Of a DNA stretch of 64,000 nucleotides, positions 24,402-55,896 are shown in pieces. A program made the translations under genes and the position numbers. The stretch comes from an uncultured virus (IMG/VR IMGVR_UViG_3300010163_003618). Lineage: Duplodnaviria; Heunggongvirae; Uroviricota; Caudoviricetes. The notes under the pieces are model-generated. The model saw only the letters and a list, made by a program, of their open reading frames with translations, was not told where the DNA came from and made no database searches. The stretch lies in IMG/VR virus record IMGVR_UViG_3300010163_003618. The stretch is one strand, 5' to 3'. The stretch's first letter is position 1, and each line of letters begins with the position of its first letter.

Positions 24402-25472
24402 ATGAAGTATTCCTACAGAGACAGTGTAAAATTATGTATTGAACCTCAGGAGTTTAACAAAAACAGTGGAAAAGAAGTATTACAATATGCAGTTGGTGGA
24501 TTGCTGTATATGCCAGCAAGTAACACTAAAATAGCTAGTAAAATCATAAGCGGAGAATACAGCTTTGTAAAAAGTATGGTACTTGACTTAGAGGATGCCT
24601 TAGGTGATGATCTAGTAGGGTTTGGACAAAGGACAATCAAGGATACTATAAGAGAAATAGGTAAGGCAGTTGAGGATGGTAAAATTACAATAAATGAAGT
24701 TCCTTTAATATTCATAAGAGTAAGGGAGACAAAACATATATATGATACAAAAAAGATGTTAAAGGGTGATATCAAGTACATCACAGGATTTAACATTCCA
24801 AAATTTGATAAAAATAATTGTGATGATTTCATTGCTGCGTTTAAAGAAATAGCTGACTGGGCTAAAAATAAGTATGATACTACATTATATATGATGCCAA
24901 TTATAGAGAATAAAACTACAATATACAGACAGTTAAGGATGGAGAACCTTCTGTATATTAATGATAAGCTTCGTGATATAGTAGATAATGTATTAAATAT
25001 AAGGGTAGGCGGGGCAGATTTCTGTAGCGTTTATGGGATCAGGCGAAGCATGCATGATGATATTTATGACATAGGAGTTGTAAGAAGTGTATTAAATGAC
25101 ATAGTAAATGTGTTTGGTAAAAGCTATGTAGTAAGCGGTCCAGTTTGGGAATACTTTGAGAACAAGAACAATAAAGAAGATACACGGTGGTCAGAGGGTC
25201 TAAGAAAAGAACTTTACGCTGACAGACTGAATGGTTTCATTGGAAAAACATCCATACACCCTAGTCAGTTAAGTGTTATTCAAGAATCCTTAATACCATA
25301 CGACAACGACTACGAGGATGCAATGAGTATTTTGGGAATGAACACCAATACAGTTGGCGTTAAAAAGAGTATGGACGGAAACAGAATGAATGAGGCAAAA
25401 ACTCACACTAACTGGGCAAAGAAAGTGATAGGATTAGCAAAGGTTTATGGGGTAAGAACGGCAGATAACTAA
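24402..25472 (+). CDS. HpcH/HpaI aldolase-citrate lyase family C-C bond lyase (Ter-associated)
   Basis: VGGLLYMPA, LDLEDA, PLIFIRVR, NIRVGGADF, SGPVWEYF, DRLNGFIGKTSIHPSQ, MNEAKTHTNWA. Confidence 0.9.
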   Translation: MKYSYRDSVKLCIEPQEFNKNSGKEVLQYAVGGLLYMPASNTKIASKIISGEYSFVKSMVLDLEDALGDDLVGFGQRTIKDTIREIGKAVEDGKITINEVPLIFIRVRETKHIYDTKKMLKGDIKYITGFNIPKFDKNNCDDFIAAFKEIADWAKNKYDTTLYMMPIIENKTTIYRQLRMENLLYINDKLRDIVDNVLNIRVGGADFCSVYGIRRSMHDDIYDIGVVRSVLNDIVNVFGKSYVVSGPVWEYFENKNNKEDTRWSEGLRKELYADRLNGFIGKTSIHPSQLSVIQESLIPYDNDYEDAMSILGMNTNTVGVKKSMDGNRMNEAKTHTNWAKKVIGLAKVYGVRTADN

Positions 25473-25490
25473 AATTAGGACATAATAAAA

Positions 25491-25527
25491 CTGTGATACC
25501 CTTATCAATTATAAAGGGTATCACAGT
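25491..25527 (+). terminator. Hairpin/terminator
   Basis: CTGTGATACCCTT/AAGGGTATCACAG. Confidence 0.7.
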
Positions 25528-25564
25528 AAATAAAGAATAATTTAAAGATGAAAAGAGTGTTTTT

Positions 25565-26113
25565 ATGAAAAGTAATCAAAACTCGTATATAAATAGGCTA
25601 ACAATTTTTTATGACAAACATATTTATTCTGATAACAAGGAGTTTATAAAGCGGTTATAATATTTTATACTACATATTTTGTCTGTTATAGCTTCTGCTT
25701 CTTTGTGGATAGGAATGAACATTATGATAACTAGACTTGATAAACAGGAAAATAATATTAGTATGAAATGCATTATTTTTGAAATGTGTATAATACTTGT
25801 CTGCTTATATTTTGGTGAGTTCTTTTTTAATGTATCAAAACATATTATTTATGACAAATATTTTGGGTTATATAACATGATGAAGCTTATTAAGAAGAAT
25901 AGAAACTTTATCATTTATAATTCTGATGGCTGTGTAAAACTCATGTTTAGAGAGAAAGAACACTATTTTCCTGTTAATATGCATATGCTTAGAAATATGT
26001 TAGGAGCGGACAGCTGTTGTTATTTAATAAACAGTAAAACTAACGAAAATGATGTAATAGAAATTACAATTAATGCCAGAAATTTCCCTTTATATGAAAT
26101 TAATGTATGTTAA
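25565..26113 (+). pseudogene. Membrane protein gene probably interrupted by an in-frame TAA at 25658
   Basis: ATG 25565 is in frame with the 25679 ORF, separated by a single stop. Confidence 0.4.
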
Positions 26114-26177
26114 TATACATTATCTAAAGTATGTCATATAAAGGACATTATATTTTTAATTTTTATTTAGCATAAAC

Positions 26178-26206
26178 TTGATTTTTTATTAGAATTGAGG
26201 TACAAT
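26178..26206 (+). promoter_or_regulatory. sigmaA-type promoter of rpn-like gene
   Basis: TTGATT-17 nt-TACAAT. Confidence 0.55.
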
Positions 26207-26222
26207 AAAGGAGAAAAAGAAT

Positions 26223-35980: not shown

Positions 35981-36052
35981 CTGTTATTACCTAGATAATT
36001 ACATTTAAATATTGAGGTTAATTATTTTAATTTATTTTAGGAGTAGAAAAAT

Positions 36053-37132
36053 ATGGTAAAAGTCATTTACTTTAATCAATGGGTCAGCAGTATAACTGAT
36101 GTAATGCAAGATTTAAAACAAAGACACACTAATAAAATAAAAATTATAGCATCATCAAAAAATGAGGATCATGTATATAAATCTGCAGCAGATGAGTTTA
36201 TAATAGAAGACTGGGAAGAAGTTAAAGATGATATTGAGAAAACCAAGCTAAACTATATAAATTGGTTATTAGAAACATGTTCAAAATATAAGGTTGATTT
36301 ATTTTTTGTAAAAAAGCATGCAGAGTGGATAGCAGAATATAGTTATAAATTTGCAATCAACAATGTGATACTAATAAATGAAAGTGAAACTACACTTAAG
36401 AAATTTAATAATAAGTCAGACATATACAAACTACTTGAACAGCATAATGAATTAAAAAGATTCATTCCAGATTATATAGTTGTTAATAAATTACAAAAAG
36501 ACAAATATATACAGGCAATAATAAGCAATCTAAAAACAGGTTTATGGTGTTTTAAACTTAATAGTGACGAGGGTGGAGCAAGCTTCAGAAAAGTAGATAA
36601 TAAGAGTTTGTCAATGAACTCCTTATATAACTTTAGAACAAATACTGTAACATTTGATGAAGCACAGCAATTTGTAAATAATATTAGTGAAGAAGACTTA
36701 AGCAAGTTAATTTTTATGGAAATACTTGATAGTCCAGAGATTAGCATAGATTGTTATAATAGCAAGCAAGGATTTATAGCCATTTGCAGAGCAAAAGAGA
36801 ATGGTACAAGAAAACAAAGGATATTCTACAATAAAGAATTATATGATGTTTGTAAGAGTATTTGTAACATATTAAAATTAGATTTTCCATTCAATGTACA
36901 ATTTAGGGTTAAGCATGATACAAGTGGTATAGATAATATAGAAAATCTAAGACTGCTTGAAATAAATCCTAGAATGTCCGGTGGAGTATATTATGCTACT
37001 GCATTAGGTATGAATATTGCTAATATATGTTTATGTGATATGCTAAATTTAACTAATGAGTATGACATAAAGAATTATATAGGTTTTGAAACAAAATATG
37101 TTACACATACAGAAAGAGTAGTTATACTGTAA
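36053..37132 (+). CDS. ATP-grasp domain protein (Ter-associated)
   Basis: IYFNQW, ADE, EGGASFR, PEISIDC, NVQF, LLEINPRMSGG. Confidence 0.87.
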   Translation: MVKVIYFNQWVSSITDVMQDLKQRHTNKIKIIASSKNEDHVYKSAADEFIIEDWEEVKDDIEKTKLNYINWLLETCSKYKVDLFFVKKHAEWIAEYSYKFAINNVILINESETTLKKFNNKSDIYKLLEQHNELKRFIPDYIVVNKLQKDKYIQAIISNLKTGLWCFKLNSDEGGASFRKVDNKSLSMNSLYNFRTNTVTFDEAQQFVNNISEEDLSKLIFMEILDSPEISIDCYNSKQGFIAICRAKENGTRKQRIFYNKELYDVCKSICNILKLDFPFNVQFRVKHDTSGIDNIENLRLLEINPRMSGGVYYATALGMNIANICLCDMLNLTNEYDIKNYIGFETKYVTHTERVVIL

Positions 37133-37149
37133 AACAAGAGAAAGTAAAG

Positions 37150-38475
37150 GTGATAAAAATGTCAAACTTAATGAGAACAATACACGACCCTAAGACTTAT
37201 ATCAGCAACTCTTCTGAAGGCAGACAATTTAAGATTAATAATCTTACCGTAGAGCATAGAAGCAATAATGCAAAAAGAGACTTCCTTTTTGTAAATAAAA
37301 CACAATGTAAACATATACCATGTAGCCCTATTAAAATGATAAAGGCATGTGAGATTTTAGCACAAGAAATAAATAGTTTCTTTTCAATAAATACAAGATA
37401 TGCTAATAAAGTATTAGTAATAGCATTTGCAGAAACTGCTACAGCTATAGGAAACATAGTAGCAAATTATGTCCGTGATTGTACATATATTATGACAACT
37501 ACGCGTGAGGATATACCAAATAGCAAAGAACTTATAACATTTGAAGAAGAACATAGCCATTCAACAACTCAAAAGTTGTTAACTTATGATGATGGTAGCT
37601 TTGATATATATAACTATGACTTTATATTATTCATAGATGATGAAATTACAACTGGTAACACAATACTAAATTTCATTAAAGCATTTGAAAAAAGGTTTCC
37701 TACGAAAAGGTTCAGCTATGGTGTAGCAAGTATATGTAATTGGATGAACATAGAAAATAGACGTGTATTCAAGGATAAATCAATAGAAACATTCTATTTA
37801 ATAGAAGGTATATTAATCGATGCTTCATTAAAATTAATTAATAACATTAATAGCAATATAGAATTTGAGTCAAGAATTGATAACTTAAATAAAAACAGTA
37901 AAGATAGTGGGTTACTCATTCATTATTCAGCATATGACAATAAAAGTAAAAATACATCAGAGGATAACATATTTAGACAAGAAAGATTAGGAAAGACACC
38001 AGGTAACTTGACAGACATGACTATTAGAGAGTTTACAAGAAAAGATCATATACTAAATGATTTAATAGTCAAAATCAAAGGATTGATTGAAAGATTAAAC
38101 GAGCAAGGTAATAACATCACCTCCATAAGAGTTATTGGTACTGAGGAGTTTATGTATATTCCAATTATGGTAGCAGCATACCTTGAAGAAGCTAGATATG
38201 AAGTAATTTGTCACAGCACAACAAGAAGTCCCATAGATAAAATACAGTATAGAAAAGGTATGACACAGGTAAGTGGTATACAAGATAATATAGTAAGCAA
38301 GTATTCAGTTTTAAGTCCCTATGATAAAAATAGAGAGACATTCATTTATAATATAAATGAATGGACAGACTTAACTATTATCATTACAGATGTAGATATG
38401 GATTATGATACAAAAATGGATTATTATGATTTGTTAAAGCCATACTGTGAAAATATAGCACTATACAACGTTTAA
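37150..38475 (+). CDS. Phosphoribosyltransferase plus TRSP domain protein (Ter-associated)
   Basis: RSNNAKRDFLFV, KHIP, FAETATAIG, FEEEHSH, DDEITTGNT, GTEEFMYIP, STTRSPI. Confidence 0.9.
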   Translation: MIKMSNLMRTIHDPKTYISNSSEGRQFKINNLTVEHRSNNAKRDFLFVNKTQCKHIPCSPIKMIKACEILAQEINSFFSINTRYANKVLVIAFAETATAIGNIVANYVRDCTYIMTTTREDIPNSKELITFEEEHSHSTTQKLLTYDDGSFDIYNYDFILFIDDEITTGNTILNFIKAFEKRFPTKRFSYGVASICNWMNIENRRVFKDKSIETFYLIEGILIDASLKLINNINSNIEFESRIDNLNKNSKDSGLLIHYSAYDNKSKNTSEDNIFRQERLGKTPGNLTDMTIREFTRKDHILNDLIVKIKGLIERLNEQGNNITSIRVIGTEEFMYIPIMVAAYLEEARYEVICHSTTRSPIDKIQYRKGMTQVSGIQDNIVSKYSVLSPYDKNRETFIYNINEWTDLTIIITDVDMDYDTKMDYYDLLKPYCENIALYNV

Positions 38476-38520
38476 AAGAAACAAAAAATAAACAAAACAA
38501 GAAAGTGAAAGGGTACACAC

Positions 38521-40564: not shown

Positions 40565-40666
40565 GCTAAGCAGTCAACATATAAGCATTAATAAGTAGTG
40601 AGTAGGCTAGTATATAAGGTAAAAATAAATATGCTAGCCTATTTAAAATAAATGAGGAGTAATAAA

Positions 40667-40948
40667 ATGGGAGAACAACAAAATGAAGAAGTAATGACAA
40701 TAGGTAAAAGGTTAAGACAACTTACAAACCAAGCAAATAGAAAAGTTGAAATAGACACCTTCGTTGCAGCTTTAGAAGATGCAGCTAACAATAGATTAAG
40801 TTCATTAGCATTTCCAGACTTAAGGCAGTATTTGAACAGTATGATTATGGATGGTACCATTTGGGAATGGTTGAAATCACAAGATTTGATTCCAACAGGT
40901 GAGATTGATCAAAACACAGGAGCATATAATTTTACAATATCCTGGTAA
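40667..40948 (+). CDS. Hypothetical protein
   Basis: GAGGAG SD; about 93 aa. Confidence 0.6.
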   Translation: MGEQQNEEVMTIGKRLRQLTNQANRKVEIDTFVAALEDAANNRLSSLAFPDLRQYLNSMIMDGTIWEWLKSQDLIPTGEIDQNTGAYNFTISW

Positions 40949-41003
40949 ATATAAGTAATGGACAAACAAAAAAACACAAAACAAAAGGGAGAATAAAATA
41001 AAC

Positions 41004-41795: not shown

Positions 41796-41945
41796 ATAAC
41801 AGTTTATACAATTAAGATAAGTGTACATAAGGAGGCATATGATTAAAATTATGTCTCCTTATATTTAGTAATATACCAAAAATTAGACTAGTTAATATAA
41901 TAGGTATAAAAATTATTTATTAATAGCTGAGGTGAAAATAGAAAC

Positions 41946-44132
41946 ATGATTGTCACTGGAGAAAAAATTTCTACAATTAAATTAGTAGAGGATAACAGTA
42001 TAACAGTTATTGATGATGTAAATAAAGAGAATATTGAGCAAATAAAAGCAACAGTAGAAGTATGTGATAAATTCATTGACAAAAAATTTGAACTACCTAC
42101 AACAAAAAATGAGGTCATTACCAAAAGAAGTAAGACAATAAGTAAGGTATATGAATGCTTGACAGAAATGCATAATGCATTACTTAACAATAAATCCCAA
42201 TATTTTAGTAGTGAAACACAGTTCACTAACTTTAAAATCAAGATAATATTTTGGTGTACAAATATATTTGAGGATGTAGTAAACCATTTGGATAATGATG
42301 GCTCTGCACTTTTAGTAATAAACAACAATAATATATCCAAACATGAAATAATGTTTGTGAATATGCTAAATAAAGCAGGTGCAACAGTACTTATAATTTC
42401 AAATAAAAATGAATGTGAGAGTATACTTAAAAATAATAATAGTTTAATTATTAAGAAATATGGGACTACAGAGAATTTAACTATAGACAATAAGTTGGCA
42501 GATAGAAATAAATCTGTATCTGCTTATGGCATAGTAGTAAGAAAGAGTTTAAGAGAGTTTGGATCATTACAAGAAGTAGAAGATGCAATTTATAATAAGC
42601 ATGAAACAATTAAGTTAATTGTAAGTGGTACTTCAATTTATATAGACACATGCGATTTTTATGCTAAGTTATATAACGAAAGTACAAAGAATCCTGAATT
42701 TGTGTTATATACAACTGGATTTCATAAGCCATCATACAATGAAACTAATGCATTTCCTAGATTAAGAATCAATAATCATTCATATATAATAGAAACTGCA
42801 TTAAAGTTTTTAGATGTTAAAAATAGTGAGATAAAGACAGAACTTGAAGAAGCATTAAGAATGCAGTTCAACAAACCAGAATACAGGTGTTTAACACCTG
42901 AAATACTTTCAAACAAGATATTTTATTCAATATGCATTATAAATAATATTTTAAAAGATGAAACTAAAAAATTTATCATTTATTATGGTAATGTAACAAA
43001 TAATGACAGTGTAATATTGCAAATATTAAGTAATGTAGAATCATTATCATATATTGTATTAACATCAGACAAGTCAAAGAGAGTCACAATAGATAATGTG
43101 TACACATTGGAGTTACCTAATTCTGTAGAGTATTTTGCAATACCTACGGTTGATAGTAGAGATAATGCATCAACAATGGCAGCACAAGCTGCTAGAAGAG
43201 TTAATCAAACACTGTATAGTGGTGATACAATTGGTATGTATAAACCTGGACAGTTTAGGACTTGTAATACCAAGAGATTTACTACAACCTTTGATGAAAT
43301 TGTAATGTGGTGGAACAAAGAGATGTATATTAGACCTGGCTTTGAATCACAAGGTGATGTTGCAATCATACCTACAATGTTCAAAGTAATCAAAGGAGTA
43401 TATCCAGATGATTATGAATACGCCAATTATATTAAAAAGTTGGCATGTGGAAAAACAATAGTGTTTAGAGTGGTTAAGCAGATAAGAGAACTTTCGGACT
43501 TTTATCCAAATTGCAATAATGACAATAGATATCAAGGAGGATTCATTCATAGGTTAACAGATATACATAATACAAAATTTGAGGACCAAAGGCCATTCTA
43601 TGAAAATGGGAAATTAAATAAAAAAAGAATCATAAATGGCATAAATTATAAGTATAAATTCCTTAATAAAAATAAGCAAGACTTAATATTTGATAAGATT
43701 GAGGAAATCATAAATAAGGGATACATCAATGAAAGCAGCTTTAAGGATAAAGAAGCATTCATTGATACAGTATTAAACTTACTGCTAAACATTAACATTG
43801 AAGTATTACAATATATTCAGTGGTTTGAATTTTATACTTATAATCCTAATTTAATAGTAATACTGAATGATATTCAGATGCCAAGTGTAAATGATACAAT
43901 ACTTATGTTATTCCTAAGTTTAATGGGATTTGATGTACTTATATTTGTACCAACTGCATACTCTGGAGTTGAGGATCATATCACTAATAAGTTTTCATAT
44001 GACACGCATACAATAGGTGAAGCAGCATATGATATAGATTTTGATAATATACAAGTAACACCTAATATTGAAGTGGATCAAGAAGAAACTAAAAAGAAAC
44101 AAGGTTTCTTTAGTAAGTTATTTAATAAATGA
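41946..44132 (+). CDS. YceG-like Ter 'biosynthetic module' component
   Basis: TTFDEIVMWW, RPGF, C-terminal LMGFDVLIFVPTAY; directly upstream of TelA as in yceG-yceH. Confidence 0.7.
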   Translation: MIVTGEKISTIKLVEDNSITVIDDVNKENIEQIKATVEVCDKFIDKKFELPTTKNEVITKRSKTISKVYECLTEMHNALLNNKSQYFSSETQFTNFKIKIIFWCTNIFEDVVNHLDNDGSALLVINNNNISKHEIMFVNMLNKAGATVLIISNKNECESILKNNNSLIIKKYGTTENLTIDNKLADRNKSVSAYGIVVRKSLREFGSLQEVEDAIYNKHETIKLIVSGTSIYIDTCDFYAKLYNESTKNPEFVLYTTGFHKPSYNETNAFPRLRINNHSYIIETALKFLDVKNSEIKTELEEALRMQFNKPEYRCLTPEILSNKIFYSICIINNILKDETKKFIIYYGNVTNNDSVILQILSNVESLSYIVLTSDKSKRVTIDNVYTLELPNSVEYFAIPTVDSRDNASTMAAQAARRVNQTLYSGDTIGMYKPGQFRTCNTKRFTTTFDEIVMWWNKEMYIRPGFESQGDVAIIPTMFKVIKGVYPDDYEYANYIKKLACGKTIVFRVVKQIRELSDFYPNCNNDNRYQGGFIHRLTDIHNTKFEDQRPFYENGKLNKKRIINGINYKYKFLNKNKQDLIFDKIEEIINKGYINESSFKDKEAFIDTVLNLLLNINIEVLQYIQWFEFYTYNPNLIVILNDIQMPSVNDTILMLFLSLMGFDVLIFVPTAYSGVEDHITNKFSYDTHTIGEAAYDIDFDNIQVTPNIEVDQEETKKKQGFFSKLFNK

Positions 44133-44148
44133 TAAGGAGAATAAAAAC

Positions 44149-45351
44149 ATGGCAATTAAGAAAACAACTGGAACAAGTAATGTTGCTACTCAGACAATCA
44201 ATACTCCTGTAGCTGAATCAACTGGTGTAATTTCACTTGAAAAGGTAGAGGATACCAGAAAGACTTATGATCTTGCACTTGCTAAGGACAAATATAAGCA
44301 GGAGATTTTAGCAAGTGGTTTGATTGATAAGCTTACAAGCACTATTGATTTGGAAAACACCAATACAATTTTGGAGTTTGGTAAGGAACCAGCTACAAGA
44401 ATGGCTCAAGTAGCTGATCAGGTATTATCTAAATATGACATGGCCAATCTGAATGGTACATCTCAGCTTGTAGATGCATTACTTACTATAATGAAAAAGA
44501 TTGATATTGGAGAATTGGAAGATGCAAAGACACTTTTAGCATCTCAGGCTAAGAAAACTTTTCTTGATCGTTTCAAGAAGTCAGCTCAAGAAAAGCTTGA
44601 TGCATTAGTAGGCAAATACAGAACACTTGGTGGTGACATGGAAAAGATCATTACTCAGTTGACAACCTACGAAACTCAAATTAAAAATTCCAATGTTGAC
44701 ATTGACAGAATGTATGATCAGGCAATTCAGAACTTTAAGGAATTAATGGGATTCGTGTTAGCTGGTGAGCAGGCTTGTACAGAAATTGAGCAGTACAAGG
44801 GGGAAGTTCAGCAGGAATTTGCAGAAACAGGTAACCCTGATTTGCAGTTTAAGCTGCAGAATATTAATCAAGCACTAACATTGATGGAGCAAAGAACATC
44901 GGACTTAAGAAGTGCAGAAGCAATTGCATTACAAGCCATTCCTGAGTTTAAGATTCAAGAATATACAAATGCGAATCTTGCACGTAAGATCAATAGTGCA
45001 TTTATTGTAACTGTACCAGCATTTAAGAATGCTTTGGTTAGTAGTGTAATTGCTAAGCAGCAGGCTATCCAGAATCAGGGTTTAAGTGCCCTTGATGAAG
45101 CTACATCAATGTTGATTAGAAAGAAAGCTGAAAATGCAGTACAACAACTTAAAAATTCTCAGCAGCTTGCTAATTCATCAGCAGTCAAAGCAGATGATAT
45201 CGAGTATGCTTGGAATGTTATTATGAATGGCATTCAGGAATATAAGCAGCTTGAAGAGCAGTACAGAAATGTTCGTAAAGAAGAAGCCAAGAGAATTGAA
45301 GAAGCAAACACAAAGTACCTTGATGCAATTGCAAGCGGACAGGGTATCTAA
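44149..45351 (+). CDS. telA: TelA/YceH toxic anion resistance protein
   Basis: TILEFGKE, long coiled coils, LEQR-like MEQRTSDL, NANLARKINSAF, VPAFK; AAGGAG SD before 44149. Confidence 0.88.
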   Translation: MAIKKTTGTSNVATQTINTPVAESTGVISLEKVEDTRKTYDLALAKDKYKQEILASGLIDKLTSTIDLENTNTILEFGKEPATRMAQVADQVLSKYDMANLNGTSQLVDALLTIMKKIDIGELEDAKTLLASQAKKTFLDRFKKSAQEKLDALVGKYRTLGGDMEKIITQLTTYETQIKNSNVDIDRMYDQAIQNFKELMGFVLAGEQACTEIEQYKGEVQQEFAETGNPDLQFKLQNINQALTLMEQRTSDLRSAEAIALQAIPEFKIQEYTNANLARKINSAFIVTVPAFKNALVSSVIAKQQAIQNQGLSALDEATSMLIRKKAENAVQQLKNSQQLANSSAVKADDIEYAWNVIMNGIQEYKQLEEQYRNVRKEEAKRIEEANTKYLDAIASGQGI

Positions 45352-45533
45352 AAGAAAAATACAATATGTAATAAAGTGGGGCAAGTAGATAGGCAAGATG
45401 TTTACATAGTTAATATGAAATGTTAACCACCTATAATAAAGAATAGCATGTGAAATAGAATAGAACATTATAAATAGCCTTTAAATATTATAAGTATGAT
45501 TTTTAATATTTAATTTTTGAAAGGAGAAAAATT

Positions 45534-45722
45534 ATGAAAATCAGAAAAGTCTTAAATAGGTCATCCAAAACTATGGCTATTGTATTAGTTCCATTAAGTG
45601 TAGCATTGATCATCTTAGCCATGCTAGGTAAATTGCCTTGGAATCAAGTTCTGCCGTATTGCATAGCAATTAACATTTTGGCATTCATTGCATTAAGCAA
45701 AAGAAGGCAGAAAGCAAACTGA
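45534..45722 (+). CDS. Small 2-TM membrane protein preceding the ATPase
   Basis: 62 aa, AAGGAG SD. Confidence 0.65.
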   Translation: MKIRKVLNRSSKTMAIVLVPLSVALIILAMLGKLPWNQVLPYCIAINILAFIALSKRRQKAN

Positions 45723-45787
45723 TATAAAAGAGTACAATACATAATACTCTTTATATAAAATAATTTAACAAGAAAGGAAAAATAACA

Positions 45788-48442
45788 ATGAGCGAAATTG
45801 AAAAGACACTATCTGATAGACTGAAAGGCTTGTCTGATGAACAGGTAGCCAACAGTAGAAATAACTATGGCACCAATGCATTGTCAAGAAAAGAGCCTGA
45901 ATCAATCCTGTCGATGTTTTTAAGTGCATTAAAGGATTTGTGTGTGCTGATCCTGCTTAGTTGCTTGGGAGTAAAAGCATTGTTTATGATCATTGGTATG
46001 ATTGTACCAGCATTAGCAAACCCAAGTGATGCTGTTGAGATCATAGGTATCATCATGGCAGTTGCACTTTCAACTGGTTTTAGTACATTATCAGAGTACA
46101 GAAACACCTCAAGAAATGAGGCATTGCAGGCAGAGTATAGTAAGACATTTGCAAAAGTAATTAGGTCAGGTAAGCTTTTGAGTATTCTTACCAGTGAGAT
46201 TGTGAAGGGCGATATCATTCTGCTTCAGTCAGGTGATAAGGTTCCTGTGGATGGTATCCTTATTAAAGGAAACCTTAAGGTAAATCAGGCGGCACTGAAT
46301 GGTGAGTCCAGGGATGAAAAGAAAGAAGCAGCCGACAATATGGATGAAGCTGAAGCAACTGATACATCATCACTACATAAGGTGTTCATGGGTTCAGTTG
46401 TAACAGCAGGTGAAGCTTATATCGAAGCAACTGTTATCGGTGATGCATCCGAGTTGGGTAAGATTAATGCTTCCTTGAACGAGGATGATGCAGATGAAAG
46501 AAAGGATACCACTTCCTTGAAGTTGGAAGTGCTATTAGGTCAGATCAACAAGCTTGGTATGACTTGTGCAGTCATCGCAGGTATTCTTAATGTAGCAATG
46601 ACGTTGTCCAGAACAAATGAAGCAATGACCTGGGCAACTATAGCATTACTTATTATGGATTCCATTATGCTTGCTGCTAGTATCATCATCATGGCAGTAC
46701 CTGAGGGACTTGCATTGATTGTGAGTCTTGTACAGTCTATGAATACAGAATCAATGTATAAGAAACACATTCTAGTTCATCACAAGGCGGCATTTGCTGA
46801 TTCAGCATATATGAATATCCTATTCAGTGATAAGACAGGTACAATTACCAAGGGTAACCTTTCACTTGCAGAGTTTATCATGGGTAACAGCAAGATTACA
46901 AAAGATGTAACAAGCAATAAGGACTTTCTGAACGCAATTGTACTTAACAATTCAGCAAAGATTTCAGAAGGTAAGGCAATTGGTAGTAACAATATGGACC
47001 AGGCTCTTCTCACTTATGCAATGAGTACATACAAATACTCAAATGATAAGAGAGATGAATCCAATGTCAAAGAAGGCAGTACAAGTATGTTCTCATCTGA
47101 AAAGAAGTGTGCAACAGTGGATCTTAAGGACGGTGGACAGTACTGGAAGGGTGCTACAGAGTTTATTATTGATTCAGTCACTCATTATGTAAATGAAAAT
47201 GGTGAGGAAGAGAAGTTTACTGAATCTGATAAGAAGGCACTGCTTAATACAATTAAGGATCAGGCAGCTCGTACAATGAAGATGCTGTCCATTGTAAGAA
47301 AGTACACTGATAGAGTTGTATTATATGCAGTAGGTTGTTTCAGAGATGATGTAAGGCCTGATGCAATAGAAACAGTTCATGTTTTGAACAGTGCAGGTAT
47401 TCAGGTTGCTATGATCACTGGTGATGCTGAAGATACAGCTTTAGCAATTGCTAAGGAAGCTGGATTAATGAATAATCCTGATGACATCATGTTAACACAT
47501 AAACAATTAGCTGCAATGTCAGATGATGAAATTAAGGAGCAGCTTAAGCATATTAAGGTAGTTAGCAGAGCAGAACCCATGGATAAAAAGAGACTTGTGC
47601 AGATTGCACAGAGCCTGGATAATGTAGTAGGTATGACAGGTGACGGTGTAAATGATGCACCTGCTCTGAAGCAGGCAGATGTTGGGTTTGCAATGGGTGA
47701 TGGTACAGCAGTTGCTCAGGAAGCAGGTGACGTTGTTATCCTAAATAACAGCTTGACTTCTATCAAGGATGCTGTATTGAACAGCCGTACTATGGCAAAG
47801 TCAATTGCCAAGTTCCTGATCTTCCAGCTTACAGTGAATGTAAGTACACTGTTAATGAATATCATTTCTCCTGTGTTGGGTTGGACAGAGCCATTCAGTA
47901 TTGTACAGATTCTGTGGATCAATCTGATAATGGATACACTCTGTGCCCTTAGTTTTGGAGCAGAACCAATTTTGAACAGGTACATGAAGGAGAAGCCAGC
48001 TAATAGAAATGATAAAGTATTGACACCTTATATCAAATCTGCAATCGGTATGGGAGCAATATTCATCACTATTGGATCAATATTAATCCTTGAGAATGTA
48101 GGCGGAATTGCATCCATGGTTACACCTAGTGACTGTACAAATGTAGAGTTGTATGAGAAGACTTTCATGTTCGCATTCTTCATCTACGCAATTCTGTTTA
48201 ACGGATTGAATGCAAGATCAGAAAACTTGAATATCTTCGAGCATATCGGAGAAAACAAGAAGTTCATGCTGATCATGGGAAGTGTAGCAGTATTACAGAC
48301 ATTGATCATCCAGTTTGGCGGTGGAATCTTTGGTACAACGACATTAACCTTTGATGCACTGCTGACAGCGTTTGTACTCGGTGCATGTATTATTCCTGTA
48401 GATATGCTCCGTAAGGTAATTTGGAAAGCAATGCATAAGTAA
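45788..48442 (+). CDS. Calcium-translocating P-type ATPase (P2, PMCA-like)
   Basis: NGES actuator, VPEGL, DKTGT, KGA, MITGD, GDGVNDAPAL, LWINLIMD. Confidence 0.95.
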   Translation: MSEIEKTLSDRLKGLSDEQVANSRNNYGTNALSRKEPESILSMFLSALKDLCVLILLSCLGVKALFMIIGMIVPALANPSDAVEIIGIIMAVALSTGFSTLSEYRNTSRNEALQAEYSKTFAKVIRSGKLLSILTSEIVKGDIILLQSGDKVPVDGILIKGNLKVNQAALNGESRDEKKEAADNMDEAEATDTSSLHKVFMGSVVTAGEAYIEATVIGDASELGKINASLNEDDADERKDTTSLKLEVLLGQINKLGMTCAVIAGILNVAMTLSRTNEAMTWATIALLIMDSIMLAASIIIMAVPEGLALIVSLVQSMNTESMYKKHILVHHKAAFADSAYMNILFSDKTGTITKGNLSLAEFIMGNSKITKDVTSNKDFLNAIVLNNSAKISEGKAIGSNNMDQALLTYAMSTYKYSNDKRDESNVKEGSTSMFSSEKKCATVDLKDGGQYWKGATEFIIDSVTHYVNENGEEEKFTESDKKALLNTIKDQAARTMKMLSIVRKYTDRVVLYAVGCFRDDVRPDAIETVHVLNSAGIQVAMITGDAEDTALAIAKEAGLMNNPDDIMLTHKQLAAMSDDEIKEQLKHIKVVSRAEPMDKKRLVQIAQSLDNVVGMTGDGVNDAPALKQADVGFAMGDGTAVAQEAGDVVILNNSLTSIKDAVLNSRTMAKSIAKFLIFQLTVNVSTLLMNIISPVLGWTEPFSIVQILWINLIMDTLCALSFGAEPILNRYMKEKPANRNDKVLTPYIKSAIGMGAIFITIGSILILENVGGIASMVTPSDCTNVELYEKTFMFAFFIYAILFNGLNARSENLNIFEHIGENKKFMLIMGSVAVLQTLIIQFGGGIFGTTTLTFDALLTAFVLGACIIPVDMLRKVIWKAMHK

Positions 48443-49540: not shown

Positions 49541-50341
49541 ATGGGATTTGATATACCTATGAACACAAAAGGTGCAATGAATTTGTCAGCTATGGTTCAA
49601 GGTGGTTTAAGTGGTAATACAGGTGGAATAAGCACAAACATGGGGCAACCAAGCATGAGCCAGCCAATAAATCAAAATTTTGCACCTCAGCAACCAATGC
49701 AACAGCCCAACATGGGACAGCAAATGCAGAACTTTAATCAACAGCCTACACCTAAGCAGAGACCACAAGGAAATGGTGTTCATCTTAAGAAGGGTCAAAA
49801 GGTTGCACTTGGAGCACCTGGTCAAGTATTACAACAAATTCAAGTATGCTTAGGTTGGGATGTAACTGATGGAAGATGTGATCTTGATGCATCAGCATTT
49901 ATGCTTGGGAGTGATAATAAGGTCATTGGTGATGATTGGTTTGTATTCTACGGTCAAATAAATAGTCCTGATGGGAGTGTAATACACTCAGGTGATAGTT
50001 TAGGAGATGCAGTAGGTGATGATGAAATAATTACCGTTAATTTACCTCAAGTGAACCCTCAAGTTCAGAAAATAACATTTGTAGTTACTATAAATGAAGC
50101 ACTTGAACAAGGACTCAACTTTAGTATGGTTCAAAATGCATATGTAAGAGTAGTAGACAAGATTACAGGTCAAGAGTTAAATAAGTTTATATTAACTGAT
50201 TATTACTCAAATGTAACATCCATGGTAGTTGGTGAGATATACAAGCATAATGGTGCTTGGAAGTTTAATGCGGTTGGTGACGGCGTAGCAAAAGATCTTG
50301 CAGGACTTTGTGCAATGTATGGAGTAAACGTAGCAGATTAA
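49541..50341 (+). CDS. terD: TerD family protein with Q/P/N/M-rich N-terminal extension
   Basis: LGWD, DLDASAF, FVFY, HSGD, GDDE, WKFNAVG. Confidence 0.92.
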   Translation: MGFDIPMNTKGAMNLSAMVQGGLSGNTGGISTNMGQPSMSQPINQNFAPQQPMQQPNMGQQMQNFNQQPTPKQRPQGNGVHLKKGQKVALGAPGQVLQQIQVCLGWDVTDGRCDLDASAFMLGSDNKVIGDDWFVFYGQINSPDGSVIHSGDSLGDAVGDDEIITVNLPQVNPQVQKITFVVTINEALEQGLNFSMVQNAYVRVVDKITGQELNKFILTDYYSNVTSMVVGEIYKHNGAWKFNAVGDGVAKDLAGLCAMYGVNVAD

Positions 50342-50363: not shown

Positions 50364-51902
50364 ATGTCAGCAGTTAAGATATTTTTTACAACTTTATGTT
50401 TGTTATTAGGTGTTTTAAATCCTCTTGCTCCGCTATTGTTAATTGATGGTGGTTCATTTGATAACAATGAGAATACTGTAATAGATGAACCACCTATAAA
50501 CGCAAATATTGATGATATCATTGAGAATAATTCAGATAACATTTATAACATAAACGGTTTCCTTACTATAGAATTAGATGGATACTGTACAGTGGATATT
50601 CCACAGTCACATTGGCAATTGGTGTCATCAGACTTAAATACTATGACACAGAAATATCTTAAGTACAAAGATAATAAAACAAGAATGCTAATGGGTTATG
50701 TAACAAACTTGGATAAAGAAACAGACATACCAGGATATATAGTACAACAAGCAGCTGATGTTGATATGGTAACAAATAATAAGCAAGAAGTTGAATATAA
50801 TAATGAGACTTGGACAGTTGTTTCATCTAGTTCACCAATAGATAATTCAAATGTAGAAGTTTATTATAAGTTAGATAAAAACGGTACATCAGCATTTTGG
50901 ATGAGATTAACAAAAGACTTGGACTTAACAGACAAATATGAAGAAGAGTTTACTGAGGTTTTAAATAAGATAATCAATTCATATAATATGTATTACATAG
51001 GTGGAAATATATTTGAAACACCAACAGATGGTATATACAATGAATTAGGAATAGGTGAAAAAGATACAGGAGAGTATAAAGAAAATAATGACAATAACAC
51101 TGTATTTCAAGGTAGGGGCGGATTTATAAAAGATACTAATATATCAGATAATTGGACGGACATGGAGATCATAATAGATGATAATAAATTTAAGCTACCA
51201 TGTTCAATGGATGATTTTTATAATGCAGGATATAGCATACATGAAACAAATATTAATGGGGAAACAGTAGTTCCAGTATCAACTACTCTCTCATTTAAGA
51301 TATCAAACATTAACGGAACAGTAGTAGAAATTACAGTATCAAATGATTCAACTGATACAATAAAGACAGTCAACGAGTGCTTAGTAAAAGCACTGCTGAT
51401 AGATAGTAACGAGTTTATATCAGTATCAGAAGCAATTAATCAAGCCACAGAACAACAGCAAGTGGAGCAGCAAGTGAAGCAGCAAGTGGAGCAGCAAGTG
51501 GAACAACCCACAGAAGGTGGAATACCACTTGAAGAATATGAGAGAGATGAAAACGGAATAATAGCAGAATTAGAAAATGGTATAGAAGGCTTAGAAATTA
51601 CAGATGGTACAAACAAAACACAGAATGAAACAAACAATAATAAAGATGATTCATCTGAATCTGAATCATCAACAATAGCAAATAATAACTTAAATACACA
51701 ACATAAGTTAATATTAGCAGGTGGAATTACATGGGACATATATACAGATGACTTAAAAGAATACTATGGTGCTTGTACAACAACTAAGTATGATAGCAAT
51801 ACATTAAATCTAATATATAAAAACAATAATTACTATATGGTAATCAGAATAGGAAATTTAAAAACAATAACATCAGTTTACATCTCAACAATAGGAGAAT
51901 AA
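50364..51902 (+). CDS. Secreted/anchored acidic hypothetical protein
   Basis: Signal-like N-terminus; 512 aa. Confidence 0.65.
   Translation: MSAVKIFFTTLCLLLGVLNPLAPLLLIDGGSFDNNENTVIDEPPINANIDDIIENNSDNIYNINGFLTIELDGYCTVDIPQSHWQLVSSDLNTMTQKYLKYKDNKTRMLMGYVTNLDKETDIPGYIVQQAADVDMVTNNKQEVEYNNETWTVVSSSSPIDNSNVEVYYKLDKNGTSAFWMRLTKDLDLTDKYEEEFTEVLNKIINSYNMYYIGGNIFETPTDGIYNELGIGEKDTGEYKENNDNNTVFQGRGGFIKDTNISDNWTDMEIIIDDNKFKLPCSMDDFYNAGYSIHETNINGETVVPVSTTLSFKISNINGTVVEITVSNDSTDTIKTVNECLVKALLIDSNEFISVSEAINQATEQQQVEQQVKQQVEQQVEQPTEGGIPLEEYERDENGIIAELENGIEGLEITDGTNKTQNETNNNKDDSSESESSTIANNNLNTQHKLILAGGITWDIYTDDLKEYYGACTTTKYDSNTLNLIYKNNNYYMVIRIGNLKTITSVYISTIGE
51456..51503 (+). repeat. 12-bp coding tandem repeat CAGCAAGTG(G/A)A(G/A) x4 (QQVE)
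   Basis: Read directly from sequence. Confidence 0.85.
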
Positions 51903-51970: not shown

Positions 51971-52846
51971 ATGCTTAAACTTGAAACAGTCAACGAATTG
52001 ACATTGAAGGTTACATCAGATGGTACTGGGCAAGATGTATTATTCACAAAAGCAGGTGCTTTCATAGCTGGTGAGTGTTATGGGCAAAAGAACTACCAGT
52101 TTGAAAAAGTGCTGTTAGGTCCTGAGGGTAACCCTATGGCAGGGTTAATGCACCAGATTACAAGAAGGTTTACTGGTGAAAATCTTCCATTGATGAAGGT
52201 AACAATGAGAGGTCAAAGTATTACATACTATGCTAATCAACAACAGCATGTAGTAGTATATAGGCTCAATCCTGGTGAGGAAATCTCAGTAGAATCTGAA
52301 AACATTTTAGCATTTACACCTGATTGTAAATATAGTGTAAGATTTCTAGCACAAGGCGTTATATCACAGAAGGGGTTAGCAACCAGTACCTTAACTGCTC
52401 AGGGACCTAATGCTTATGTGGCAGTAATAATTGATGGAAATCCTATAGTTATCAGCAATGTACAAAATGGTTCAACACTTGAAGTAGATCCAGATGCTGT
52501 AGTTTGTTGGGTAGGACAAAAGGGACAGTGTGATCCTGGCTTTAAGCTCGATTTATCATGGAAGAATATAATAGGGCAAGCATCAGGTGAAAGCTATATG
52601 TTTGAATGGAGCGGTAATCGTAGGGCTACTGTCATTGTACAGCCTAATGAGCGTCAATCAGGTATTAATATTGGTATGGATGGTGGTTCTAGCGGACAAA
52701 GGGCATCCAGACAGCAAAATCAGACATTTAGTCAGGCAGGTCAATCTATAGGACAGACATTAGGTCAGGTAGGTGGAATGCTAGGAGGGGGCAATGGTGG
52801 AAACGGCGGAGGCCTCGGAGGTATGATAGGAGGCTTATTCCAGTAA
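51971..52846 (+). CDS. AIM24 family protein with G/Q-rich tail
   Basis: KAGAFIA, TGENLPLM, VESENILAF, VDPDAVV, SGESY, VIVQP. Confidence 0.85.
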   Translation: MLKLETVNELTLKVTSDGTGQDVLFTKAGAFIAGECYGQKNYQFEKVLLGPEGNPMAGLMHQITRRFTGENLPLMKVTMRGQSITYYANQQQHVVVYRLNPGEEISVESENILAFTPDCKYSVRFLAQGVISQKGLATSTLTAQGPNAYVAVIIDGNPIVISNVQNGSTLEVDPDAVVCWVGQKGQCDPGFKLDLSWKNIIGQASGESYMFEWSGNRRATVIVQPNERQSGINIGMDGGSSGQRASRQQNQTFSQAGQSIGQTLGQVGGMLGGGNGGNGGGLGGMIGGLFQ

Positions 52847-52908: not shown

Positions 52909-53042
52909 ATGAAAGGGGCATGTACTAAATAGACATATAATAAGTTATATTAGGCTGACATATTTAATAAATGACATAAAAATATACATTATAATATCTA
53001 GAGTTAGAAATTTTAATTAAAATACAAAAGGAGAATAATTCA

Positions 53043-53756
53043 ATGTCAGCAATCAATTTGAGTAAGGTAACAGTCAACCTTAGTAAGGGTGAAAAGGTAA
53101 ATCTATCTAAGGCATCCAATAATTTGAATAAGATTATGGTGGCTTTAGGATGGGATCCAGTAGAGCCTGAGGTAGAAACAGTAGTAGAAAAGGTGAAGCC
53201 TGGTTTCTTTGCAAAACTCTTTGGGGCACAAGAGAAAGAAGTAACAAGACAGATAAGAGTAAGCAAGTCAACAGAGGATTATGATCTTGATGCATGGATT
53301 GCATTGGAAAGAAAAGGCAAGATTGAAAGAATTCAAGATGTAGTTTATTACGGCAATCTTGCATTCTACGATGACGACAATATTTTAATCATTAAGCATC
53401 ATGGTGATAATCTTACAGGACAAGGTGCAGCAAACAGTGATAAGGAACAAATTACATTTAATCTTGAGCATATTCCTTCTAAATATGACAAGATTCTTGT
53501 AGCTGTTACAATATACAGAGGAAAAGAGAGACATCAGTCTTTTGGAATTGTAAAGAATACCTTTGTAAGAGTAGTAGATATGAATGATAATTTTGAAATC
53601 TGTCGATACAGTCAGGCAGACATGTCTGATAATCCTGATGCAATCAGTTTTATTGCAGGGGAGTTCTGCAGAGAAGGTGGTACATGGCAATTTAAGGCTA
53701 TTGGTGAATGCACTAAAGATGGAAGTATTACAGATGTAATTGCCAGATACCAATAG
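53043..53756 (+). CDS. TerD family protein (TerZ/YceC-like)
   Basis: LGWD, GFFAKLFG insert, DLDA, HHGDNLTG, WQFKAIG. Confidence 0.9.
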   Translation: MSAINLSKVTVNLSKGEKVNLSKASNNLNKIMVALGWDPVEPEVETVVEKVKPGFFAKLFGAQEKEVTRQIRVSKSTEDYDLDAWIALERKGKIERIQDVVYYGNLAFYDDDNILIIKHHGDNLTGQGAANSDKEQITFNLEHIPSKYDKILVAVTIYRGKERHQSFGIVKNTFVRVVDMNDNFEICRYSQADMSDNPDAISFIAGEFCREGGTWQFKAIGECTKDGSITDVIARYQ

Positions 53757-53783
53757 AAAATACATAGGAGAGGTGGTATAAAA

Positions 53784-55028
53784 ATGTCGATTTCACTTAA
53801 AAAAGGTGGAACGGTATCATTAAGTAAGGAAGCAACTAAGCTAGGTATACAGTCACTTTCAAAAGTAGCAGTAGGACTTGGATGGGATTGTAATGTGGCA
53901 TCTGGTAAAACCTTTGATCTTGACGCATGGGCATTTATGGTAATAAATAATGAAGTCAAGAGAAAGAATCTAGTGTATTTTGCAAATACATCCGACCAGT
54001 ATGGAAGTATACATCATATGGGGGATAACCTGACAGGTAAAGGTGAGGGTGATGATGAAACAATTCAGATAAACCTTGACAAGGTACCTATGAAGTGTGA
54101 CAGAATACTTATTGGAGTTACCATTTACCATGGTGTATCTAAGGGGCAGTCATTCAAGGATGTAAACAATACATTCATAAGAATATATGATACTATATCA
54201 GGTATTGAAATCTGTAAGTATGCAGATGAATTTAAAGGTAACCTAGGGGATAGCGTAAGCATGTTATTTGGTATGCTATACAGAGATAGTGATCAGTGGA
54301 AGTTTATGTCAATGGGTGTGGGCTCTAAGATAGCCCAAATAACCAGTTTAATAAATGCATATGGAATGTATGCATCTATTAATATAAAAGAGTTAGATAA
54401 CAATAACAATCCAAATCAAGGAGGAAAGAAAAGAATGGCAGTATCATTAAGTAAAGGTGGCAAGGTTAGTCTTGCTAAGGTTGCACAGGATGCAGGCATT
54501 GCAGGAGGTTTATCTAAGATTACAGTGGGTCTTGGATGGGATGTAAACAGATACGATGGCGGTGCTGACTTCGATCTCGACGCAGCAGCATTTTTGTTAG
54601 GCACAAATGGCAAGGTAAGAAACGAAGCCGACTTTGTGTTCTATAATAATAAGAATGGTGCAGGTGTAATGCATACAGGAGATAACAGGACTGGTGCCGG
54701 TGAAGGTGATGATGAGCAGATTAAGGTTGATCTTACTGCAATTCCAGCAGATGTAGACAAGATTGCTTTCACTGTAACCATTGATCAGGCAGACGAGCGT
54801 CACGAGAATTTTGGTATGGTTGAAAATTCTTTTATTAGACTTGTGGATGATACAACAGGTACCGAGTTGTTGAGATATGACCTTGGGGAGGACTTCTCCA
54901 TCGAAACGGCAGTTGTGGTAGCAGAGTTGTACCGTAACAACGGTGAATGGAAGTTCAATGCAATTGGATCAGGATTCTCTGGAGGTTTGGCAGCATTGTG
55001 CAACAACTATGGCATCCAGGTAGGATAA
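53784..55028 (+). CDS. terD: Tandem two-domain TerD protein with internal start at 54435
   Basis: Two full TerD domains in one frame; AAGGAGG SD precedes in-frame ATG 54435. Confidence 0.9.
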
Positions 55029-55206
55029 TGCCAAAAGTCTAAGGGCACCTAAAATAGCGGTGCCCTCTGTTAAAGATTAAGGGTCATTAATACACTAAAT
55101 CTTAAAACAGTTTTCATACATATTAAATTAAAATGTAAGTACATGATACTAACAATGATACATAATCATTGTGTGTATAGATAATTAAAATCAAGGAGGA
55201 CATTTT

Positions 55207-55842
55207 ATGATTACGAAAGGCTACAATTCTAATAACTCAAACAGTAGTGTTATTAACTTATCAAAGGGTAACAAAATCAATCTGTCTAAGGAGGCTCCTG
55301 GACTTAAGAAGATCATGGTAGGATTAGGGTGGGATACCCAAAAGTATGATGGAGCAGATGACTTTGACCTTGACGCAAGCGTATTCCTTGTAAATAAGTA
55401 TAACAGAACCACAGCAGATGGCTTTGTATTCTACAATAACTTGAAGGGGCCCAATGATTCAGTTATTCATCAGGGAGACAACAGGGACGGTTCAGATATA
55501 GCTGGCATGGATGATGACGAGCAGATTTACATTGATCTGGACAAGGTACCTGAGGATATCGAGAAGATAGCAATTACTGTTACAATAGATCAGGCAGATA
55601 AGAGGGGTGGCCAAAACTTTGGTATGGTAGAAAATGCTTACCTGCGCCTGTTAGATACCGAGACAGGCAAAGAAGTGGTTCACTTCGACCTTGGTGAGGA
55701 GTTCTCCATTGAAACAGCAATCGTAGTAGGAGAAGTTTACAAGCACAATGGGGACTGGAAGTTCAACGCTATTGCTAAGGGATTCAGTGGTGGTCTGTTA
55801 GCACTCTGCAGAAACTATGGATTAGACGCTGAATACAGATAA
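55207..55842 (+). CDS. terD: TerD family protein
   Basis: GLGWD, FDLDAS, FVFYNN, HQGDNRDG, DDEQI, WKFNAI. Confidence 0.93.
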   Translation: MITKGYNSNNSNSSVINLSKGNKINLSKEAPGLKKIMVGLGWDTQKYDGADDFDLDASVFLVNKYNRTTADGFVFYNNLKGPNDSVIHQGDNRDGSDIAGMDDDEQIYIDLDKVPEDIEKIAITVTIDQADKRGGQNFGMVENAYLRLLDTETGKEVVHFDLGEEFSIETAIVVGEVYKHNGDWKFNAIAKGFSGGLLALCRNYGLDAEYR

Positions 55843-55864
55843 GATCAACAAAATAACAAACAAG

Positions 55865-55896
55865 TGGGGTGTGCCAAAGGCATGCCCCATTTTTTA
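55865..55896 (+). terminator. Terminator closing the Ter region
   Basis: TGGGGTGTGCC/GGCATGCCCCA plus T-tract. Confidence 0.85.

Follow-up and report, generated by a model that had tools for sequence, protein, structure and literature searches.

The 64,000-base stretch analysed here (the window) is the start of a 72,019-bp single contig, G000, which IMG/VR holds as a virus record (IMGVR_UViG_3300010163_003618), and it carries a Ter stress-response locus between positions 24,402 and 55,896. A Pfam scan of 29 open reading frames (ORFs) of the window recovered all 14 named Ter genes, each full-length and on the plus strand, with five TerD domains (PF02342) spread over four of them, which agrees with the inventory given in a preliminary description of this DNA. 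None of the 14 genes is interrupted by a stop codon or frameshift, and every catalytic motif checked was present, the motifs being those we take to be characteristic of each family; the degenerate catalytic residues raised as a possibility in that description are not seen. Its report of no TerC or TerB extends to the whole 72,019-bp contig, where PF03741 and PF05099 had zero matches, the remainder of the element being outside the search, and the 72-kb contig therefore lacks the TerC and TerB of a classical terZABCDE system. The lyase gene begins 22 bp after the second of two PIF1-like helicase genes, apart from the other Ter genes, and its end lies 10.6 kb from the ATP-grasp gene; four non-Ter ORFs (40652, 45534, 48740 and 50364) sit within the Ter block, so the set-apart lyase (put earlier at about 10.5 kb) and the interleaved element genes both hold. 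Listed Ter matches are above curated cut-offs unless marked.

24402–25472, + strand: C-C lyase (HpcH/CitE-type TIM barrel); PF15617 C-C_Bond_Lyase, E 1e-96; motifs LDLED, IRVR, MPIIE, GGADF
36053–37132, + strand: ATP-grasp ligase; PF15632 ATPgrasp_Ter, E 1e-24; EINPR motif
37150–38475, + strand: phosphoribosyltransferase (PRTase)-TRSP; PF15609 PRTase_2 and PF12500 TRSP; phosphoribosyl pyrophosphate (PRPP) loop IDDEITTGNT
38521–39669, + strand: StiP-Pelota; PF11202 StiP and PF15608 PELOTA_1, E 1e-93
39662–40564, + strand: vWA (TerF-like); PF10138, E 2e-50
40652–40948, + strand: small ORF, no Pfam match; 38% identical to an ORF of relative L136, kept after vWA
41004–41795, + strand: HAD phosphatase (IIB type); motifs DMDRT, GDSQLD; S6PP, E 1e-4 (weak)
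41946–44132, + strand: YceG-like; PF14266, E 4e-33, in three stretches
44152–45351, + strand: TelA/YceH toxic-anion resistance; PF05816, E 5e-64
45534–45722, + strand: 62-aa hydrophobic ORF, no family; directly upstream of the pump
45788–48442, + strand: P-type ATPase, plasma-membrane Ca2+-ATPase (PMCA)-like; TIGR01517 best family; PEGL, DKTGT, GDGVND, FQLTVN and NLIMD intact
49541–50341, + strand: TerD with a Q-rich N-terminal linker; PF02342, E 5e-64
50364–51902, + strand: backbone gene, predicted secreted, no family; interleaved in the Ter block; an Atlas search gave no name
51971–52846, + strand: AIM24-family; PF01987, E 1e-19
53043–53756, + strand: TerD (divergent); PF02342, E 1e-44
53784–55028, + strand: tandem TerD-TerD; PF02342, two stretches
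55207–55842, + strand: TerD; PF02342, E 4e-71

By gene content the locus belongs to the Ter system with a five-gene enzyme module, and on this contig it is not a classical terZABCDE system. It contains the PRTase with its PRPP loop, StiP-Pelota, HAD, ATP-grasp and TIM-barrel lyase of the module, together with the Ter core of several TerD domains with acidic loops and the sub-membrane components TelA, vWA and YceG. The likely start of TelA is the ATG at 44152, which is preceded by a ribosome-binding site, and in relative L136 a vWA gene also follows StiP, with one extra ORF in between.

The calcium type assigned earlier to the pump is upheld by its sequence: TIGR01517 is the best family, and the best PDB sequences are plant ACA8 and Listeria LMCA1. 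DKTGT at 348, PEGL and NLIMD align with ACA8, placing the phosphorylation site and the M4/M6 cation ligands in the protein. The pump is likely a Ca2+ exporter and likely takes the cation-handling role held by TerC in proteobacterial loci; the 62-aa ORF before it, for which no homolog was found in the fetched Ter loci, is a possible regulator. All five TerD domains have GD(N/S) loops and DLD motifs, and the second domain of the tandem protein aligns to the solved TerD 2kxt (E 7e-68) with a GDNRTGxGxGDDE loop; these acidic loops presumably bind Ca2+. In the mechanism we propose, export by the PMCA-like pump would keep the Ca2+ level of the cytosol down, and the five TerD domains, by binding Ca2+, would serve as sensors or scaffolds for an assembly of vWA, YceG, TelA and AIM24 under the membrane.

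Comparison with chromosomal, plasmid and phage Ter loci

The gene set itself is not special: a locus of this kind is common among the fetched Lachnospiraceae Ter loci, StiP has many plasmid matches, and Ter enzymes of a phage (ME3) and calcium pumps of phages are published. StiP was found in 38 of 401 sampled Lachnospiraceae genomes, including the centre genome G004 (the other 37 at 45–52% identity), and in 16 of 401 genomes of a phylum-wide sample (43–51%, except G004). Among 15 chromosomal Ter loci, each read over up to 20 kb, a P-type pump stands beside TerD genes in ten and YceG and TelA are present in ten, several of the rest being cut by the end of the stretch. The premise that pump plus enzymes is an unusual combination therefore fails: it is the usual layout of the fetched Lachnospiraceae Ter loci, in which two TerC queries also found no homolog. 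Loci such as L119, L121–L124, L126, L128 and L130–L132 resemble the window in lyase, PRTase-TRSP, StiP-Pelota, YceG, TelA, TerDs and P-type pump; L131 (in G102) has pump, TerDs, vWA, lyase, PRTase, StiP, HAD, TerD and AIM24 together and so is additionally alike in vWA, HAD and the TerD-AIM24 pair. The window differs from the chromosomal loci in that its lyase is displaced by 10.6 kb to a place beside PIF1 and backbone genes interrupt the Ter block. It also has all five enzymes together with YceG/TelA, vWA and AIM24, and its Ter proteins form their own clade, at 23–65% identity to the Lachnospiraceae chromosomal copies.

The five-gene module and its predicted pyrimidine-like ribonucleoside were set out by Anantharaman, Iyer and Aravind in 2012, as related in passages of PMC11994780 and PMC8115787. 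Compared with that system (also via PMC7824862), the window has the same two PRTase folds, HAD, ATP-grasp and TIM-barrel lyase with TerD, TelA, vWA and YceG, but its contig has a P-type pump and neither TerB nor TerC.

Ter enzymes on plasmids and on phage ME3, like calcium pumps on huge gut phages, are already published. StiP matches 2,572 PLSDB plasmid records, 1,683 of them typed conjugative. The ter loci of Enterobacterales and Pseudomonas plasmids (Klebsiella pK2044-like, PMC8115787) likewise combine plasmid-borne Ter genes with a biosynthetic cluster, but they are terZABCDEF loci with TerC and about 35% identical to the window. The cultured Acinetobacter phage vB_AbaM_ME3, whose Ter genes are described as a relatively complete Ter system (PMC7824862), shares vWA, TerD, PRTase, HAD and StiP-Pelota with the window but has a TerC-like gene, and lyase, ATP-grasp, YceG, TelA and pump were not found in the 19 kb read. 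Calcium pumps are reported on Jug and 81 other huge gut phages (PMC12880540), and a PspA-TerD-vWA-pump module on gut huge phages (bioRxiv 10.64898/2026.10.24.761521). These too are large gut elements, some Bacillota-like, with TerD/vWA nearby and a small ORF before the pump; their modules include PspA and, in the passages covered here, no enzyme module, whereas the window has no PspA family match in Pfam. Among IMG/VR loci, L009 and L010 have TerDs, pump, HAD, lyase, PRTase and StiP in a single run, with a Nampt gene near the Ter locus of L010; two others (L004 and L005, from 244-kb records) have a lyase-PRTase-StiP trio, TerD and HAD not being found in the 21 kb read.

The carrier and its relatives

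The window can be tied to longer sequences through one segment of its backbone.

691–14849, + strand: backbone segment of nine genes and a tRNA cluster; colinear with the end of G002 (tblastn 31–72%, same order)

The tRNA genes for Asn, Thr, Ser and Met follow one another in the same order in the window and in G002, an IMG/VR record of 268 kb. Since the window at 0.7–14.8 kb matches the final 20 kb of G002 colinearly, G002 shows what likely lies upstream of the window contig. The backbone gene at 14301, a marker with no family name, has 111 homologs; an alignment of it reached two IMG/VR records, G002 and G001 (250 kb), and 28 metagenome loci, three of them on 465–497-kb contigs, and no match was found in PLSDB plasmid records. 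Alignments of StiP and of the marker reached 9 and 2 IMG/VR loci, respectively, and single-protein queries none. Coding is almost entirely on one strand in both relatives (259 of 265 ORFs in G002, 218 of 231 in the other), which have 85 proteins in common. Among the 106 largest of the 163 G002 ORFs of at least 200 aa, Pfam identified an actin-like protein, a ParA fusion, DUF87 and FtsK ATPases, PolA, gyrase, sigma-70 and NlpC/P60.

The best plasmid match of the G002 DUF87 ATPase is pBTHD789-1 (31.7%, E 1e-79). This is pXO16, a 350-kb conjugative plasmid of Bacillus thuringiensis israelensis that looks like a phage, with all genes in one orientation, and forms no plaques (PMC6199540). The order of the pXO16 genes is kept by eight matching proteins of G002 and seven of G001, in a colinear block with DUF87 and FtsK ATPases, an NlpC/P60 protein, a giant protein, a clamp-loader-like ATPase and a helicase, although at 24–33% identity only. 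We infer from its size and content that the matching stretch is the tip transfer locus, which measures 25 kb in pXO16 (PMC9673590); homologs of the DUF87 ATPase score just below the P-loop_TraG cut-off. A stand-alone second TelA-like gene lies directly after the block in G002 (L034:10653-11615), and pXO16 is not among the best 40 of the 2,572 StiP-matching PLSDB records. The relatives G001 and G002 thus have the two-ATPase block and the nearly uniform gene orientation, and contigs of the family reach 720 kb. Judging from identical base-pair sizes in the hit lists, StiP and the DUF87 ATPase occur together on contigs of 600,378 and 451,431 bp, and StiP and the marker together on five contigs. 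G004 is a Lachnospiraceae metagenome-assembled genome (MAG) in which two such elements are partly represented; both have the ATPase, a TerD/AIM24/pump block in the window's order and a lyase directly after PIF1.

Searches for virion genes were negative over the parts scanned. Pfam found no capsid, portal or terminase among the 106 G002 ORFs, PHROGs found none in 85 of 132 large G001 ORFs and 10 more of G002 (short domain-level tail or peptidase matches only), and among 73 ORFs of the window contig PHROGs found no head, tail, packaging or lysis family. Because G002 is colinear with the window, carries the pXO16-colinear block and shows no capsid, portal or terminase in the parts scanned, the carrier is likely not a phage; we consider it likely to be a giant pXO16-like plasmid-type element from a poorly described replicon family. 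The mobile rather than ordinary chromosomal location proposed at the outset is thereby upheld through the relatives, and the phage carrier is not. What stands of 'phage-like' is the single coding strand, six tRNAs and the IMG/VR 'provirus' label.

A divergent huge phage or phage-plasmid, using the Ter locus for superinfection exclusion or to stabilise its host during long infection, is nonetheless an alternative that we would call unlikely. It would account for the virus record and for genes common in huge phages: one-strand coding, tRNAs, a transfer-messenger RNA in the relatives, PolA, gyrase, a sigma factor and the Prs-Nampt pair. Ter enzymes on ME3, the calcium pumps that huge gut phages carry with TerD and vWA, and StiP and lyase copies from IMG/VR records as the nearest outside ones point the same way, as do the mostly viral Atlas look-alikes of ORF 40652 (score 0.88, a lead only, from a search that gave no name). 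Against it stand the negative searches for virion families in the ORFs scanned, the marker's lack of any match among 50,697 phage records and the colinearity of the relatives with conjugative pXO16, whose own phage-like look comes without plaques. We found no paper on a gut pXO16-like family, subscription papers and the supplements of 10.64898/2026.10.24.761521, which possibly list members, being outside the scope of the search.

Predicted chemistry of the enzyme module

Structure models suggest different roles for the two PRTase-fold proteins. PRTase-TRSP, for which no match was found among PDB sequences, resembles a nucleobase-type enzyme of the adenine/xanthine PRTase kind in its model (pLDDT 79.6), with 2dy0 (Z 14.4) and the Bacillus subtilis xanthine PRTase (Z 13.9) as best folds. 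The StiP model (pLDDT 85.2) combines a PRTase fold with a C-terminal L7Ae-like fold, a domain also detected by sequence profile (E 3e-4). Its top folds, 8a0c (Z 10.4, 193 residues, root-mean-square deviation 3.8) and 7shg (Z 10.0, 205 residues, 4.2), are glycan ribofuranosyltransferases, followed by PyrR (Z 9.2) and HGPRT (Z 8.9). The closeness of the modelled StiP fold to O-ribofuranosyltransferases is a lead, with a small margin over nucleobase-type folds. The Pfam name of StiP implies a cysteine protease; the listed fold matches of the model (residues 64–380) are PRTase and L7Ae/Pelota folds with no protease fold among them. The HAD gene matches TIGR01484 (HAD-IIB, E 4e-8) below its cut-off, with whole motifs, and is homologous to the HADs of chromosomal Ter loci. 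Known ribofuranosyltransferases transfer ribose-5-phosphate from PRPP to a hydroxyl and are paired with a HAD phosphatase (PMC10299916).

We propose that ATP-grasp and lyase would build a small base-like acceptor, which PRTase-TRSP would N-ribosylate using PRPP. StiP would then add ribose-5-phosphate to a hydroxyl and HAD would strip the phosphate, giving a ribosylated signal or protectant.

A different and rather improbable reading is that the module modifies a macromolecule, with StiP O-phosphoribosylating RNA (through the L7Ae domain) or an envelope glycan and HAD trimming the phosphate, as in CriT/CrpP. Both top StiP folds belong to glycan enzymes that act as PRTase and HAD pairs, and the L7Ae-like domain would suit an RNA target, but their lead over PyrR is about 1 Z unit at 9–11% identity and a sequence-profile search of StiP gave no match to ribofuranosyltransferases. 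The ATP-grasp, the lyase and the adenine-PRTase-like partner also better suit small-molecule chemistry. No paper on StiP as a ribofuranosyltransferase was found, in a search with subscription papers outside its scope.

Probable long residence on the element and other candidate carriers

Long residence of the Ter locus on the element, suggested in the preliminary description, gains support from element-specific clades, the conserved split lyase and a family word in the Ter genes, and we regard it as likely. A quick StiP tree, built from 23 hand-picked proteins of 119 listed non-self matches plus locus copies, places the window in a clade (SH-like approximate likelihood ratio test 99) with all 12 included proteins from 350–721-kb contigs, apart from the chromosomal clade. 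The lyase tree agrees, with an element-specific clade at support 99; the TelA tree, which contained no partner from an element, was uninformative. Identities to element versus chromosomal copies are 78 versus 43% for lyase, 67 versus 48% for StiP, 81 versus 50% for AIM24, 76 versus 57% for the last TerD and 66% (L134) versus 56% (L131) for TerD 49541; for ATP-grasp, PRTase, HAD, YceG and TelA no element copy was found among the relatives' fragments examined. The lyase lies directly after PIF1 in L047, L138 and L139 as well (69–78% identity), L047 having the same PIF1-lyase-LRR (leucine-rich repeat) order.

Measured against synonymous-codon shuffles, G001, G002 and G405 have about twice the expected number of copies of the word GAGTTTA (z 4.1–6.4) and the window Ter genes have 10 against 3.3 expected (z 4.1), with no enrichment in pooled chromosomal Ter loci (z −1.2) or in G003, a record described below; this gives modest support to long residence. 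The coding strand of the contig has 29 copies and the opposite strand two, and the word could serve as an orienting word for the element's FtsK. The word GGGTA, with z 7.4 in the pXO16 stretch, is not enriched in window genes (z −0.5 and 1.3).

The Ter cargo is patchy across the family. In L062 a homolog of backbone gene 50364 precedes a SleB-like gene with no Ter genes between, L064 has no lyase after PIF1, and G001 has neither StiP nor lyase; of 13 contigs of at least 300 kb among the ATPase matches listed, at least two match StiP-bearing contigs by identical base-pair size. A much more divergent lyase-PRTase-StiP trio (31–37%) in L061 (17047-20347, marker 14301 nearby) suggests a separate acquisition.

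These identities also bear on whether the element is integrated, in the manner of an integrative and conjugative element or large island, in a clostridial chromosome that contributed a host-type Ter locus as carried-along cargo. This we consider very unlikely: 'provirus' labels, a longer 98.6-kb parent contig and fragments binned in a Lachnospiraceae MAG would fit it, but the family ATPase occurs in 1 of 401 Lachnospiraceae genomes, namely the MAG with short element contigs, long family contigs cluster at 330–720 kb, and lyase, AIM24 and StiP are far nearer to element than to chromosomal copies.

Three other elements were considered. Hodor megaplasmids of gut Bacillota (PMC12934698) are likewise larger than 300 kb and often filed in virus databases, but they were rejected on GC content (45–47%, versus 25–40% in 2-kb bins of the window, 31–38% in the relatives and 30–38% for the family) and on layout, the window family being one-stranded and tRNA-rich. 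Hodors have Rep_3 and sortases; neither was found among the 106 ORFs scanned of G002, an incomplete element, and a term search of PMC12934698 returned neither 'TerD' nor 'P-type'. For Inocle, passages of PMC12340149 gave no link. G003 (L156), a complete 345-kb record with inverted terminal repeats and 44 tRNA-type genes, has TerC-like, TelA, TerD, lyase, PRTase, StiP and HAD genes at 264–272 kb and no clear capsid match among 55 large ORFs scanned; despite the Ter genes in common, it has only 12 proteins in common with G002, neither transfer-type ATPase among them, and was set aside as an element of another kind.

Other genes and signals of the contig

The tandem PIF1-like helicases directly upstream of the lyase occupy 21688-24379. 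A NAD-salvage set comprises a Prs-like gene, Nampt/NAPRTase, an NrtR-like Nudix regulator, two isochorismatase-family genes and a microbial PARG (G000 66651-67502 and 69253-71274 (L001); window 57387-58205, 59402-59971, 9311-9850 and 7573-8406). The Prs-Nampt pair resembles, as we take it, the phage NAD reconstitution pathway NARP1, and the Prs-like gene could feed PRPP to the Ter PRTases. By eye, ORFs 14301, 27388, 33006, 33644, 34421 and 35208 seem to have a repeated N-terminal domain in common, for which no Pfam or PHROG family was found; G001 and G002 contain paralogs of 14301 and 33644. The stretch 60386-63398 encodes two tandem multi-pass membrane proteins (528 and 481 aa) with no family match, which look to us by eye like GT-C glycosyltransferases.

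An Rfam scan returned tRNAs only, with no K-turn or riboswitch at gathering scores, and a promoter scan was at chance level (113 counted against 107 ± 10). A query for sequencing runs covering window 36001–45900 listed none. The sequence TTTTAATT appears in 8 of 35 upstream regions against 0.6 expected from base shuffles, a weak control, and sits before backbone and Ter genes alike (for example, 13735, 36053, 49541, 53043 and 56098). Near-consensus TTGACA promoters lie upstream of 57029, 58630, 66288 and 67684.

Interpretation

Our reading, to which we assign a probability of about 0.55, is that the window carries an intact, rearranged, TerC-less clostridial-type Ter locus, likely long-resident cargo of a giant pXO16-like element (likely 350–720 kb) with its genes on one strand. 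In this reading the element is likely a conjugative plasmid hosted by gut bacteria of a Lachnospiraceae-like kind, and the locus is predicted to protect the host envelope. The ribosylated product would help the host, and hence the element, to withstand bacteriocins, antimicrobial peptides or phage that attack the envelope. Protection of the host envelope appears to be the simplest benefit for a plasmid-like passenger, with phage exclusion as one case of it.

Several observations weigh against this reading. The pXO16-like block is seen in G001 and G002 and is absent from the window's own contig, and the likeness to transfer ATPases is weak, VirB4 (E 0.09) being the sole PDB match of the DUF87 family. 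G001 and G002 are about half the expected element size and no member is complete, which leaves room for virion genes in the remainder; the Terminase_6N test is insensitive, having failed on the complete record G003 as well. IMG/VR labels G000, G001 and G405 'provirus', window proteins also occur on a longer 98,604-bp contig, and the host assignment comes from a single MAG bin (G004). The StiP and lyase clades adjoin copies from large IMG/VR virus records (support 82–91), and GAGTTTA, picked after the fact on G000 and mostly in one frame, is weak in other element fragments (z 1.6). The pump scores 463.5 bits against TIGR01517, below the cut-off of 507.05, though this is its best NCBIfam family, and it clusters with chromosomal copies (61%) and not with those of the elements in G004 (33–37%), which implies that the Ter locus was not inherited as one unit; its sequence makes a swap of the pump likely. 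Finally, the Ter literature, in the passages covered here, attributes no demonstrated product, substrate or phenotype to an enzyme module of this kind.

A bolder version, which we regard as a long shot, is that a family of pXO16-like conjugative elements of 350–720 kb in gut Clostridia has made a complete, calcium-gated Ter pathway its own. StiP would there act as an O-phosphoribosyltransferase, with its L7Ae RNA-binding domain as guide, and together with HAD it would write a ribosyl-ribose mark on RNA or make a disaccharide nucleoside signal, protecting the host envelope and blocking rival phages or elements.

The locus is thus a known system in rearranged form, carried by a family of replicons that is poorly described. 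It presents the full five-enzyme set beside a pump in a TerC-free context, for a module whose product has been a prediction since 2012. The two PRTase-fold proteins do look unlike, one base-type and the other nearest to O-ribofuranosyltransferases and with an RNA-binding domain, which would allow a sharper test of the module. The gut elements now filed as viruses include a large family that is likely plasmid-like, with a patchy stress cargo. Some Ter and pump genes now credited to huge phages may likewise belong to plasmid-like elements, which would bear on how 'phage auxiliary genes' are counted.

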